Source: an uncultured virus (IMG/VR IMGVR_UViG_3300032220_001168) (Duplodnaviria; Heunggongvirae; Uroviricota; Caudoviricetes). Taken from it: DNA of 20,000 bases. Position numbers and translations under genes: made by a program. The notes beneath the pieces are model-generated. The model was not told the DNA's origin. It did no database searches and was given only the letters and a program-made list of their open reading frames with translations. Numbering within the stretch: position 1 is the stretch's first letter; every line of letters starts with the position of its first letter. The DNA lies in IMG/VR virus record IMGVR_UViG_3300032220_001168. The stretch is one strand, 5' to 3'. Positions 8,844 through 16,534 of this stretch are shown in pieces.

Positions 8844-9242
8844 CTATTGTAGCTCGTCAAACTTGTAGGTGATCCTCATTTCGCCGCCTAATGCCTTCAC
8901 TTCATTACTGGCGTCTTCTGCTGCCTCCTGCTGGATCAATACTGAAGGAACAACGGCGTCGGGCAATGGGGTGACGATGGCATGTGGATAAAGTTGCTTG
9001 GCTTGCTCGGCTAATGTTGCAGCATTCTCAATGCGCTCCTCTTTCTCCCATTGCTCCACAATTTTGACAGTTTGCCTGTCAACATCCTTCATGATTTGCC
9101 GTGTTTTCCATTCAGTCCAATCAGGACGGCACCAAACAATAAGCCTGGAGAGCCAGGGGTTAAAGGCCATTGAAGGACGCATTAGCACCAACCAAATTGC
9201 CAGCTCATAAAGCAGAGCATTGATCAGTGCTGATAGCGTCAT
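8844..9242 (-). CDS. Hypothetical protein with hydrophobic N-terminus, coupled to the endolysin (possible lysis accessory)
   Basis: ATGA overlap with the endolysin stop. N-terminal hydrophobic segment followed by a helical charged region. Confidence 0.6.
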   Translation of the reverse strand: MTLSALINALLYELAIWLVLMRPSMAFNPWLSRLIVWCRPDWTEWKTRQIMKDVDRQTVKIVEQWEKEERIENAATLAEQAKQLYPHAIVTPLPDAVVPSVLIQQEAAEDASNEVKALGGEMRITYKFDELQ

Positions 9243-9931
9243 GGTTTGACCAGTACAGCCCAGCCAGAATTGGGCCCCTCAACAGTCCAGCGGGGAGCCC
9301 AATATTTCTTCCCATAGTAAACACATTTGCCGCCTTCGCCACTGATGTATCCACCATGAATCACGTCTGCTGTGCCATACGGGTCGTTGTGAACGATGGA
9401 AAGCGCATCAAAGCCCACTGCCACGCTCCAGTGACCGCCTCCAGAGGGGGCTTTATAGCTCCCATGATGCAACCATCCAACCAGCACTGGACGACCCTCT
9501 TTCAGCTCCTTTTCAAGGGCTTCTAGGCCCATGTTTTGCTTGAATTCCGCCTGGAGTCCTAGGTGTTGCAAAGCCTTTAGTTGAGCGCTGGAATCAGTGG
9601 TGTCCCCGTAACGAGCGCGAATGCTGTTGTACTCGTCATCACTGCCCACTTTTCCATAGAACTTTGCGACCATGGCGGAGCTGCTGCTAAAGCATTCACG
9701 ACCGCCAGAGCCACTTTTGTTGTCACGTTGCCATTCGTAGGGTACGGACAGGATCGGAGATTTTTGCTTTCCAGTCTGACTCCAAACCTTAAACCATTCG
9801 TTATTTTTGCTCATCAATTCAGGAGCAGTCTTCATGAGCTGCTCTTCAAGCAATTGCACGGCAGCACTTTGATACGGCAGTCCTTGCTTGTAATATTTGA
9901 ACAAATCAGAAAGGCGAACGGAGCCAGACAT
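9239..9931 (-). CDS. C39-family cysteine peptidase, probable endolysin
   Basis: LSVPYEWQRDN...RECFSSS (catalytic Cys), GGGHWSV (His), HNDPYG (Asp). Cyanophage-type N-terminal helical domain. Perfect AGGAGGT RBS at 9936-9942 (- strand). Confidence 0.85.
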   Translation of the reverse strand: MSGSVRLSDLFKYYKQGLPYQSAAVQLLEEQLMKTAPELMSKNNEWFKVWSQTGKQKSPILSVPYEWQRDNKSGSGGRECFSSSSAMVAKFYGKVGSDDEYNSIRARYGDTTDSSAQLKALQHLGLQAEFKQNMGLEALEKELKEGRPVLVGWLHHGSYKAPSGGGHWSVAVGFDALSIVHNDPYGTADVIHGGYISGEGGKCVYYGKKYWAPRWTVEGPNSGWAVLVKP

Positions 9932-15284: not shown

Positions 15285-15403
15285 TTCAGAACTTCCCCCC
15301 AACACACACGATTGGCTTGCCATAGCAAAACCCTGCACAAATAATTTTCTGAAGGGTCCGGGTCAGAAGCATATGCAACATGCGCTGATTCCCATGCACT
15401 CAT
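15281..15403 (-). CDS. Micro-ORF (40 aa), hypothetical
   Basis: MSAWESAHVAYASDPDPSENYLCRVLLWQANRVCWGEVLK*. Start and stop each overlap neighbours by 4 nt (ATGA, GTGA). Confidence 0.5.
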   Translation of the reverse strand: MSAWESAHVAYASDPDPSENYLCRVLLWQANRVCWGEVLK

Positions 15404-15543
15404 CCATTGTTCTTTCGTGGGAAATTTTCTTTGATCTTGATCGTCCATTGGTAAATAGTCTCAAGAAGGTAAACAATTGATGAAAGGATTAGCAGCAATA
15501 AGACACTGCCAATCACAATGGAAAATGTAACTGAGAGAGCCAT
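15400..15543 (-). CDS. Single-pass membrane micro-protein (47 aa)
   Basis: MALSVTFSIVIGSVLLLLILSSIVYLLETIYQWTIKIKENFPRKNNG*: long hydrophobic helix plus basic tail. ATGA overlap downstream. Confidence 0.6.
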   Translation of the reverse strand: MALSVTFSIVIGSVLLLLILSSIVYLLETIYQWTIKIKENFPRKNNG

Positions 15544-15635
15544 GATTCATCAAGAGGGCTGCCTTCAGAATTGGTGACAATTTGGCCCTTGAAAACAAGA
15601 GCCAAGCGAACTGCCGCCAGGTCTAAAGCTTTCCC
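15513..15635 (-). other. Putative programmed -1 ribosomal frameshift site (G_GGA_AAG at 15635-15629) and 38-codon -1 frame extension
   Basis: ...GCG GGA AAG CTT TAG: in-phase X_XXY_YYZ heptamer identical to the lambda gpG/GT site. The -1 frame stays open to TGA at 15515-15513. Confidence 0.6.
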
Positions 15636-16534
15636 GCAACGAATACTTCCACTCCTTTAATGGCCTGCTCAGTGGTGCCTTCGGCACAGATAGAACGAAG
15701 AGTGGCAATCTCCTGTGTCATGGCCGCCTTGGTAATCTTGATGCCTTTCTCCTTCACCCATGCCGATACCATTGCAATGATTGCATTGGCGAGCATATGA
15801 GCGTCTTTGAGATCGTCACCTTTGGAAAGGCCAAGGCTTTCCAAGGCAGTTTTGGCAGCTAAAAGACTTGCCCGCTCTTCTCCGTACTGAAGAGGATTGG
15901 CTTTGCAAAAGGCTGTGAGGGCTTCTTTGCCATTGAAGGCAACAGTCCCCGTTCCTCCAGTAGCAGGAATGCTTGTTGTAGCAGGCGACTTGTCCTGTTG
16001 CGATACCGCTGCTGGTTTCTTGCTCTCCTGTTGGAGGGGGAGTTTGGGCGCAGTTTGTACGTTGCCATCGTCAGCAGTGGGAATGTCTTCGCCGGAATAA
16101 AGCTTGAGACCAAGGCCCGTAAAAGTAGCAATACACTTGACACTGGCCCGTTGAATGTTGTCGCTCACTTGACGAGCATCAAGCTCCTTAACTGCATTGT
16201 GCTTGTTGTCCATCAATGGAAAGACCAACGCAGGAGTGCGACGGCAACCATCTGTAAGGTAGGCCCGCAGAATCCAGCAGCCAGTCTGGCCAAACACCGG
16301 CCACCCCATTGTGCTCTCCTCAAATGCCACGAACAACGTGGGAAATTGCTCCTTGAGGTAGCGGAAAGCAAAAGGCCAGGACAAATAGGAGAGTCCTTTG
16401 TAGTTTTTCTCAACGTGCTCGCCAATGGGCAGCATGTAAGCTTTGGTGAACTGTTCAGGGGTGATTTCCAGAGGGCTGAACAGACCATTCATGCGGTCAG
16501 ATAGAGCTAGTGATGCGGGGGAGGTAAGGTCCAT
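15623..16534 (-). CDS. DUF1071/Sak3-like single-strand annealing recombinase (303 aa)
   Basis: HVEK..KGLSYLSW..A...LK..FP, FPLMDNKHNAV, DARQVSDNIQRA.VKCIA...GLGL.LYSGED are Rad52-fold Sak-type motifs. Linker plus helical C-terminal domain. ATG 16534 preferred over the track start at 16690, which lies inside the upstream gene. Confidence 0.8.
   Translation of the reverse strand: MDLTSPASLALSDRMNGLFSPLEITPEQFTKAYMLPIGEHVEKNYKGLSYLSWPFAFRYLKEQFPTLFVAFEESTMGWPVFGQTGCWILRAYLTDGCRRTPALVFPLMDNKHNAVKELDARQVSDNIQRASVKCIATFTGLGLKLYSGEDIPTADDGNVQTAPKLPLQQESKKPAAVSQQDKSPATTSIPATGGTGTVAFNGKEALTAFCKANPLQYGEERASLLAAKTALESLGLSKGDDLKDAHMLANAIIAMVSAWVKEKGIKITKAAMTQEIATLRSICAEGTTEQAIKGVEVFVAGKL

Follow-up and report, generated by a model that had tools for sequence, protein, structure and literature searches.

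RESULTS

The 3′-end of the annealing-protein gene

The window, a stretch of 20,000 nt from an uncultured virus (IMG/VR record IMGVR_UViG_3300032220_001168), carries on its minus strand a gene for a Sak-type single-strand annealing protein (SSAP), and the features at the end of this gene are collected in Table 1. A Sak3/DUF1071-like identity had been proposed from the letters alone, and a Sak-type identity is borne out by matches to PF06378 (E = 1.9e-16; score 60.4 bits, cut-off 22.3) and to phrog_8492 (E = 1.2e-41). The start of the gene is uncertain because the ORF stays open to GTG 16690; relatives align from residue 1 with the form that begins at ATG 16534. The last codons read GTT GCG GGA AAG CTT TAG and, as stated in the original prediction, contain the heptamer G_GGA_AAG in phase with the SSAP frame and one codon before the stop. 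A −1 slip at this site would enter an open stretch of 38 codons, and the peptide obtained by translating it is identical to the one first written down.

Between the SSAP stop and the ATG of the next gene lie 79 nt, in agreement with the gap of ∼80 nt pointed out earlier. With the alternative start of the next gene, its GTG overlaps the stop of the −1 frame tail as GTGA, and the next gene of the closest relative (L002) also starts at a GTGA overlap. The 38-kb record contains 89 stop-to-stop ORFs with a length of 100 codons or more; in 2 of them an in-phase XXXYYYZ falls within the last five codons, and of these two the SSAP gene alone has a −1 ORF that reaches 28 codons. The −1 tail itself occurs once per phage genome.

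Table 1. Positions of the elements at the end of the SSAP gene, numbered along the window
Feature	Position	Strand	Remarks
SSAP gene, zero frame	15623..16534	minus	ATG 16534 to TAG 15623, 303 aa; PF06378, phrog_8492
SD-like AAGGAG, 16 nt 5′ of the heptamer	15652..15657	minus	possible stimulator; also codes for conserved K-G/E-V
Slippery heptamer G_GGA_AAG, in phase with the SSAP frame	15629..15635	minus	from sequence; same site slippery in relatives
−1 frame extension	15513..15629	minus	starts at GCT (15629); 38 codons (15629–15516) and TGA (15515–15513); first ∼23 residues form a conserved tau-like core
Zero-frame stop TAG	15623..15625	minus	one codon past the heptamer
RNA hairpin, stems of 3, 7 and 9 bp, loop UUUU	15572..15619	minus	−24.2 kcal/mol, z −4.25
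Next gene, small membrane protein	15400..15543	minus	start ATG 15543 or GTG 15516

The claim that the window holds no phage polymerase stands for the 25 window ORFs scanned, none of which matched a DNA polymerase. Moreover, five phage records, of which three are 94–100% complete and one is a complete isolate genome, yielded no polymerase of family A, B or C. The phage, a cyanobacterial virus, codes for a primase-helicase, an exonuclease and the SSAP, and a polymerase was not found.

Conservation of the heptamer and selection on the −1 frame

A functional site was expected to be shared by homologs, with a −1 frame under selection, and this is what the relatives reveal. All 46 relatives that have the gene end on the contig carry a heptamer zero or one codon before the stop, G_GGA_AAG in 23 and A_AAA_AAG in 23 of them, and each of the 120 SSAP cluster representatives ends in GKx, [GS]KK or GK. 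The complete tails are open in every case (45/45), with lengths of 28–43 codons. Over 19 aligned codons in 37 distinct sequences, none is interrupted by a stop in the −1 frame, versus 23 and 31 sequences in the two remaining frames, and the pN/pS values are 0.46 for the −1 frame and 0.91 and 1.38 for the others. The peak of column entropy moves from position 3 of the zero-frame codons upstream of the site to position 3 of the −1-frame codons downstream of it.

One relative (L042) was considered as a natural in-frame fusion of SSAP and tail and rejected: its contig contains Ns and an internal frame break, and both heptamer and −1 tail are still present. The six distant Sak loci checked (L044–L049) have neither a slippery site nor an open −1 tail.

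The SD-like element named in the original prediction is present in the window, but it is conserved in one clade only: GGAG or GAGG ending 16 nt upstream of the heptamer is found in 11 of 16 distinct sequences of the G_GGA_AAG class, and in the A_AAA_AAG class such an element is absent or placed differently. The element overlaps conserved codons. Taken on these sequence signals, programmed −1 frameshifting at the end of the SSAP gene is very probable.

A probable stimulatory hairpin downstream of the heptamer

The small hairpin first drawn behind the site, CCTGGCGG/TCGCTTGG, did not hold up as a stimulator, with −6.2 kcal/mol and a z of −0.86, values matched by 37 of 200 shuffles. A larger hairpin takes its place (Table 1), which begins after a spacer of 9 nt and is not equalled in folding by any of 200 shuffles. 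Its MFE lies below that of 287 of 288 local 60-nt windows and of all 200 synonymous randomisations. The same region folds strongly among relatives, the mean MFE over the 37 sequences being −26.5, compared with −12.6 in local windows and −16.6 when the codons are randomised synonymously. In 34 of the 37 the hairpin is at or under the 5th percentile of local windows, and it is weak in three (L003, L008 and L031).

In clade A, the hairpin has 15 pairs that are 95% paired with compensatory changes in eight of them, a result reached by 0 of 500 shuffles; in clade B, 19 pairs are 94.3% paired with compensatory changes in three. The register of the hairpin differs among three clades while the peptide alignment stays gap-free, and because of this varying register the 37 sequences give no joint consensus fold.

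Likeness of the tail to the C-terminus of tau

The original prediction had named a motif at the end of cyanobacterial DnaX proteins. To collect a tau set, this motif was searched as DNA in metagenome contigs, which gave at least 117 stretches, of which 80 were examined. The motif does exist: in 71 of the 80 it lies 7–31 residues before the C-terminus, and of the 51 motif-carrying ORFs that are 540 aa or longer, 50 are matched by NF011510 (DNA polymerase III gamma/tau), 46 with a score above the cut-off of this model. The consensus of this cyanobacterial-type tau island is D..A.RLA.FF.G[EQ][IV][IV].

Aligned by hhalign, the profile of the phage tails matches that of the tau tails over 23 columns with a probability of 94.6 (P = 7.3e-8), a comparison subject to a look-elsewhere effect because the search motif behind the tau set had been chosen for its resemblance to the tail. 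The score of 33.3 was reached by none of 400 column shuffles, the maximum of which was 15.7. In the reverse direction, an HMM of the tau tails was applied to 13,500 six-frame fragments from phage DNA, and its top 10 hits are all −1 tails. The window tail and one tau tail share 12 of 23 residues, and the best pair score was reached by 0 of 100 shuffles. The conserved tail columns A10, F13 and G15 fall on invariant tau columns, and the FF of tau corresponds to one F in the phage tails.

The proposed resemblance to DnaX C-termini thus stands at the level of profiles, far above shuffles, but is weak by HMMER, where the tail profile gives tau tails 1.3–16.5 bits. Chance carriers of the motif that are not DnaX score 6.8–8.9 bits, equal to most tau tails, so that most of the HMMER signal is the short motif of ∼13 residues itself. 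Searching 1.84 billion representatives with the tail profile returned 29 matches at E ≤ 0.001, none of them DnaX: eight are tiny ORFs (30–41 aa) with the same tail, and 21 are long repeat proteins matched in 4–31 stretches, the Pfam-scanned ones (16 of the 21) being Ig/cadherin-like and similar. A Pfam scan of all 33 tails yielded nothing at E ≤ 10, and PDB searches by the tail profile or the tau-tail profile yielded chance matches only. Among 8000 candidates no longer protein holding the tail was found at E ≤ 10, which is weak evidence, and a scan of genome contigs gave three loci only, none cyanobacterial. When the tau-tail alignment was searched against viral contigs, one relative appeared among 51 stretches; the match lies inside a 689-aa structural protein and was set aside as due to chance.

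Outside the tail, no likeness to DnaX was detected: the zero-frame SSAP profile against the C-terminal 220 residues of DnaX had a probability of 0.25%, and no match to NF011510 was found in the phage record. Judged by its sequence, the SSAP is not a member of the DnaX clamp-loader family, as it lacks detectable homology to the AAA+ core or to tau domain V. It is reasonably likely that the tail mimics tau.

Predicted docking of the tail on Pol III alpha

In E. coli, the 23 residues at the end of tau bind the tail of the alpha subunit (PMC4703070), and by analogy the tau island may be the alpha-binding peptide in cyanobacteria. The window tail was modelled with residues 1140–1355 of alpha from Synechocystis, rather than from the host, using an alignment made for this analysis. 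As had been proposed, a complex with a cyanobacterial alpha was predicted: the tail is placed on the C-terminal domain with a model score of 0.73, versus 0.02 for the best control, and the tool warns of memorised tau–alpha complexes. The same mark is attained by 116 out of 157 solved complexes and by 2 out of 215 mismatched pairs. At least 82% of the contacts are common to the runs, partner pLDDT is 66 or higher, and the modelled interface joins alpha 1269–1349, the tau-binding end of alpha, with tail residues 1–21. The docking pass may reflect likeness to solved tau–alpha complexes.

DISCUSSION

A model for probable frameshifting of the annealing protein

In our model, the SSAP mRNA would behave as a −1 cassette of the dnaX type, made up of the heptamer, the zero-frame stop close behind it and, 9 nt downstream, a strong hairpin. 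Most ribosomes would terminate and release the 303-aa annealing protein, and a fraction would slip from GGA_AAG to GGG_AAA, read 38 further codons and produce a 340-aa form; plausibly, the tail would be present on just a minority of the subunits. The first ∼23 residues of this tail would mimic the island that is conserved towards the C-terminus of tau (DnaX) in cyanobacteria, and therefore assemblies with some long subunits would tether the host polymerase core. Tethering at annealed intermediates would serve recombination-dependent replication in a phage without a polymerase. The whole account, in which a tau-like tail added by frameshifting tethers the polymerase core to annealed recombination intermediates, has in our view a little better than an even chance of being right. 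That the virus has copied the tau peptide, and that slipping places the copy on a set fraction of recombinase subunits as a landing pad for Pol III, is about evenly balanced, and equally so its reading as a recombinase-tethered replisome with stoichiometry set by recoding.

Other explanations of the locus

The frameshift may be real and the tail dock elsewhere, with host SSB and the exonuclease or primase-helicase of the phage as examples of partners, or alter oligomerisation of the SSAP, so that the likeness to tau would be a coincidence of a short amphipathic helix with a strand after it. C-terminal regions of SSAPs are known partner hubs in other phages, as in lambda Red-beta, and such a partner would fit both the marginal HMMER likeness, confined mostly to the motif, and the database-wide profile search that returned no DnaX. 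Against it stand the profile–profile match far over shuffled controls, the reciprocal search that picks the tails out of the fragment set, the conserved columns on invariant tau positions and a predicted interface at the tau-binding end of alpha; we consider it unlikely, though worth keeping in mind.

If the tail does mimic tau, it could also act as a decoy that occupies alpha and uncouples the host replisome, as in host shut-off. The sequence and docking evidence fits decoy and recruitment equally. We infer recruitment rather than blocking since this phage group, lacking its own polymerase, would need active Pol III, and fusion to a DNA-bound recombinase, presumably in a minority of copies, would suit tethering over titration. 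The decoy is improbable.

It is very improbable that the −1 ORF is translated alone, either by ribosomes that reinitiate past the SSAP stop or through a non-canonical start codon, to give a free peptide of ∼30 aa. Gene callers do list the eight tiny ORFs mentioned above in public data, and the tail stop often overlaps the start of the next gene, as in coupled genes. However, the −1 frame of the relatives shows no conservation of a start codon, 30 of 44 lack any ATG, GTG or TTG in the part of this frame that is open upstream of the site, and a free peptide leaves unexplained why two different heptamers are kept in phase at one site in all relatives that have the gene end.

We give just as little credit to an explanation by an RNA element only, i.e. 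a terminator, attenuator or processing site with the open −1 frame as a by-product. The hairpin is strong and conserved, and that of the window contains a U-rich run. However, a simple terminator scan was negative at the site, the hairpin changes register between clades under a gap-free peptide alignment, and the −1 frame is free of stops and under selection; the hairpin exceeds synonymous recodings in stability, yet conservation of the peptide extends past it. A one-base assembly error splitting a single ORF can practically be dismissed, given the same arrangement in 46 independent records, an isolate genome among them, and contigs of four other runs (from three studies, one being that of the probable source sample) that span 15513–15660 without an indel. 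The sequencing runs listed for the site included no RNA run.

Comparison with known systems

In E. coli dnaX, which yields the tau and gamma isoforms, frameshifting relies on an A_AAA_AAG-type heptamer with a downstream hairpin and in part on an upstream SD-like element. The SSAP gene resembles it in having a slippery heptamer followed by a hairpin, and in isoforms that would differ in an alpha-contacting C-terminal part. The outcome is opposite: slipping in dnaX truncates the protein and drops the alpha-binding part, whereas slipping here would extend it and add an alpha-binding-like peptide, and the slipping gene is that of a recombinase instead of a clamp-loader subunit.

The lambda tail-assembly chaperone G/GT has G_GGA_AAG near its gene end, as does the SSAP gene, and makes a short and a long form in fixed ratio, an arrangement conserved across many phages. 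There, frameshifting serves structural assembly and adds a whole domain; here a short linear motif would be added to a recombination protein. The Sak SSAPs (PF06378) that lactococcal and other Firmicute phages encode are alike in the N-terminal annealing domain, with 30–40% identity over ∼130 residues, but are ∼195 aa long and lack the long C-terminal domain and, in the six loci checked, the slippery site and the open −1 tail.

Both heptamers of the SSAP genes are described as highly shift-prone in E. coli (PMC5009743). A literature search that included terms in the main text of PMC5009743 and PMC10885494 found no described frameshift in an annealing-protein gene. The gp40 helicase of Bacillus phage SPP1 contacts host DnaG and DnaX (PMC6316719). 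This siphovirus, which like the present phage group has no polymerase of its own, captures host Pol III by protein contact. SPP1 binds tau through its helicase, whereas here an apparent copy of the polymerase-binding peptide of tau would be carried on the annealing protein by recoding.

Capture of Pol III by phages without a polymerase is known for few models, and coupling of recombination with replication for fewer. The conserved, unannotated recoding signal described here suggests a concrete answer that can be tested, namely that the annealing protein carries a short tau-like peptide. If this is true, public records annotate the SSAP genes of the clade wrongly, the Synechococcus phage S-CBS4 reference genome included, and a recombination gene would be added to the few genes of bacterial viruses with −1 frameshifting. 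It would also be a case of mimicry of a replisome docking motif, and would offer a peptide-sized handle on the tau–alpha contact in cyanobacteria.

Slippery heptamer at the end of the annealing-protein gene

Reverse-complemented, the window corresponds to the initial 20 kb of a 38-kb IMG/VR virus record estimated to be 54% complete, and its gene content, as judged from family-model matches, is of the cyanobacterial siphovirus type. The closest isolate is Synechococcus phage S-CBS4, with 56% identity in the Sak-type single-strand annealing protein (SSAP). The SSAP gene finishes at 15623 with GTT GCG GGA AAG CTT TAG, which confirms the original prediction of an in-phase G_GGA_AAG heptamer one codon ahead of the stop; likewise, a -1 slip does enter a frame open for 38 codons, whose product is called the tail here.

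Features of the window and of the corresponding S-CBS4 locus
Feature	Position	Strand	Basis or remark
SSAP gene	ATG 16534 to stop 15623	minus	relatives align from ATG 16534
G_GGA_AAG heptamer	15635-15629	minus	in phase with SSAP frame
Stop of -1 frame (TGA)	15515-15513	minus	
Larger hairpin	15619-15572	minus	
Region with a 24-nt in-frame insertion near tail end	15516-15545	minus	versus closest relatives L002 and L003
Small membrane-protein gene, next after SSAP	start ATG 15543 or GTG 15516	minus	GTG start overlaps tail stop as GTGA
Endolysin-like gene	9239-9931	minus	matches papain-like Peptidase_C70/C39-like models and phrog_10051
Virion and tail-fibre genes			family-model matches
Endolysin, ThyX, dCTP deaminase, PD-(D/E)XK exonuclease, primase-helicase, Sak-type SSAP			family-model matches
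gp078, 31-codon hypothetical gene lying in the gap past the tail region (S-CBS4 reference annotation)	L050 4082-4177	opposite	

In the whole 38-kb record, an in-phase XXXYYYZ lies within the last five codons of 2 of the 89 ORFs of at least 100 codons, and of these two only the SSAP gene has 28 or more open codons behind it in the -1 frame. What decides that the cassette exceeds chance is comparison. Viral contigs, when scanned, yielded 49 loci, of which 43 are full-length-type relatives (58-95% identity); with S-CBS4 and two mis-binned genome contigs added, 46 records, the window included, reach the 3' end of the gene. A slippery heptamer lies in phase in every one of the 46, either G_GGA_AAG followed by one codon and the stop (23 records) or A_AAA_AAG with the stop immediately next (23 records). 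Locus L041 is truncated by the contig end ahead of the site and L052 just past the stop; tail length ranges from 28 to 43 codons in the 45 that are complete. The phage contigs L051 and L052 sit in assemblies labelled Gammaproteobacteria and Methylacidiphilales, which is probably mis-binning, and hence these labels are uninformative on the host.

Both heptamers are classical, being of the kind used by E. coli dnaX and lambda G/GT. PMC5009743 gives both as very prone to shifting in E. coli. In the openly available articles searched, we found no description of a frameshift in an annealing-protein gene.

A single-base assembly error, by which gene and tail would be one continuous ORF, is contradicted by contigs from four other sequencing runs, which span the site in the window's own lineage with zero indels. 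The best 120 protein-cluster representatives of the family all end in GKx, [GS]KK or GK, and none has an in-frame tail.

In the window the 24-nt insertion extends the tail from 30 to 38 residues and created the upstream in-frame ATG of the small membrane-protein gene. The -1 tail is unannotated in the S-CBS4 reference. In the same record (NC_016766; L054/L055) two more ORFs, each 100 codons or longer, have an in-phase XXXYYYZ at their end and a long -1 ORF after it (AAAGGGC with 115 codons, TTTTTTG with 39), which may be further recoding sites or merely overlapping genes. Neither tail nor slippery site is present in the distant, AT-rich Firmicute-type Sak loci (L044-L049), and in at least two of them the gene directly after Sak has a product with an SSB-like beginning.

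Selection on the -1 frame

The -1 frame is coding. Column entropy peaks at third positions on both sides of the site, in the zero frame upstream (1.01, 0.99, 1.59) and in the -1 frame downstream (0.93, 0.77, 1.31). Over 19 aligned codons, -1-frame stops occur in 0 of 37 distinct sequences, as against 23 and 31 in the other two frames, and pN/pS is 0.46 as against 0.91 and 1.38; homologs retain slippery site and peptide, with synonymous-biased variation. The consensus of 33 distinct aligned tails is xVDLAAARLARAFAGxIAxDxDGxPLxE, with G15 invariant and D3, A7, A10 and F13 nearly so. Across relatives no conserved start codon was found in the -1 frame. The downstream gene varies by clade (membrane protein, zinc-ribbon protein and others) and the tail remains with the SSAP gene. 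Among 39 distinct contexts, 26 show the tail's stop overlapping the start of the following gene, as ATGA, GTGA or TTGA.

RNA signals around the heptamer

The small hairpin originally placed 7 nt after the heptamer is not significant (-6.2 kcal/mol, z -0.86) and is replaced by a larger one (-24.2 kcal/mol, z -4.25), reached by 0 of 200 shuffles. Among 37 distinct relatives, folding energy over the 60 nt past the heptamer averages -26.5 kcal/mol, compared with -12.6 for local windows of the same contigs and -16.6 for synonymous recodings of the same tail; exceptions with weak hairpins are L003, L008 and L031. The peptide alignment is gap-free and the hairpin takes three registers in three clades, so one consensus fold for all clades fails. 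Within clades, the hairpin is maintained through compensatory changes: in clade A, 15 pairs are 95% paired with both sides changed in 8 (0 of 500 shuffles as good; slid controls 35-55%), and in clade B, 19 pairs are 94.3% paired with both sides changed in 3. Of 16 distinct sequences in the G_GGA_AAG class, 11 retain the SD-like AAGGAG noted 16 nt upstream; in the A_AAA_AAG class it is not conserved.

Transcriptional slippage seems unlikely as a common mechanism because half of the family has only GGGAAAG. Taken together, the observations give what characterizes a -1 programmed frameshift cassette, the product itself being putative; we consider frameshifting at this site very probable, and are equally confident that the cassette is real and conserved.

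Resemblance of the tail to the end of tau

Initial tests of the idea that the tail resembles DnaX were unsupportive. The tail profile met only 8 tiny ORFs with the same tail and 21 repeat proteins among 1.84 billion representative proteins, and nothing was found in Pfam, the PDB or among longer proteins. The motif A.RLA.FF.G[QE][IV][IV], originally put forward as a DnaX C-terminal motif, was turned into degenerate DNA and sought in metagenome contigs, where at least 117 stretches match; of the 80 examined, 71 have the motif 7-31 residues ahead of the ORF C-terminus, 8 were discarded by hand and 1 has an open 3' end. The DNA polymerase III gamma/tau model NF011510 matches 50 of 51 motif-carrying ORFs of at least 540 aa, 46 above cut-off; it exceeded the cut-off in 1 of 14 control genomes, a set with Synechococcus elongatus as its sole cyanobacterium. 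The motif is real, since it lies near the C-terminus of ORFs matching NF011510, and it is a conserved island at the end of cyanobacterial-type tau, preceded by a proline-rich linker. The metagenome loci L068, L073, L085, L109, L122 and L133 carry cyanobacterial-type dnaX ORFs of 780-870 aa; the DnaX model aligns with these either as two separate stretches or only beyond about residue 240-320, a pattern that resembles an insertion in the ATPase domain, possibly an intein.

Compared as profiles, tail and tau tail match over 23 columns (probability 94.6%, P 7.3e-8), phage positions 1-23 pairing with tau columns 8-30. Of 400 column-shuffled controls none came close (maximum 15.7 versus 33.3), and the reversed alignment gave 7.9. 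A10, F13 and G15, conserved in the phage tails, line up with A17, F20 and G22, columns that are invariant in tau, and D3 lines up with a majority D. With a tau-tail HMM built without any phage sequence, -1 tails were the top ten hits over 13,500 six-frame phage-DNA fragments (E 0.0065-0.42), and in the window's own record the tail scored 9.9 bits, the runner-up 4.3. The best phage/tau pair is identical at 13 of 23 positions, and the window tail and one tau tail share 12 of 23; 0 of 100 shuffles attain the best pair score. Against this, the phage profile gives tau tails only 1.3-16.5 bits by HMMER, so the predicted resemblance stands at profile level and is weak in HMMER searches. Sequences outside DnaX that bear the motif by chance score 6.8-8.9 bits, and 8.4 bits is the top value for an unrelated fragment; hence the bulk of the signal is the motif itself. 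That the tau set was gathered using a motif chosen for its resemblance to the tail also counts against the likeness. The zero-frame SSAP shows no likeness to the DnaX C-terminus, so the SSAP is not a DnaX relative and the tail would be a short mimic.

The proposed docking on host Pol III alpha was modelled with the window tail (alignment of 33 tails) and Synechocystis alpha residues 1140-1355. The score, 0.73 (runs 0.67, 0.74, 0.73) versus 0.02 for the best control, passes a mark that 116 of 157 solved complexes also attain, as do 2 of 215 mismatched pairs; this calibration is rough here since our own alignment was used. Runs share at least 82% of contacts, with partner pLDDT of at least 66. 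In the model, tail residues 1-21 face alpha 1269-1349, within the final 87 residues, and the tightest contact sets tail 9-18, which is the motif, against alpha 1316-1323. The pass shows likeness rather than binding, and the predictor's prior exposure to solved tau-alpha complexes may be its source.

Host polymerase and the possible role of the tail

The original prediction saw no polymerase in the window; this holds more widely, since neither the window's record nor three relatives (estimated at 94%, 100% and 98% completeness) nor S-CBS4, whose genome is complete, yielded a DNA polymerase of family A, B or C, and among the 105 annotated CDS of S-CBS4 there is likewise none. These phages encode primase-helicase, exonuclease and SSAP, and therefore host Pol III must be used. 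In phage SPP1, recruitment of the host replisome goes through the phage helicase, a protein that binds DnaX and DnaG (PMC6316719).

From sequence likeness and the docking model, tau-tail mimicry is the best-supported function of the tail and a reasonably probable one; recruitment specifically, by way of this mimicry, is favoured slightly. The signals, the selection, the likeness to tau and the docking pass are results of the analysis; we infer that ribosomes slip and how often, that the tail binds, and what follows from binding, which may be to recruit or to block. Some of the ribosomes would change frame at the heptamer and so extend the SSAP by the tail; annealing-protein assemblies with some long subunits would then keep the Pol III core in place at annealed 3' ends, and recombination would thereby be coupled to replication.
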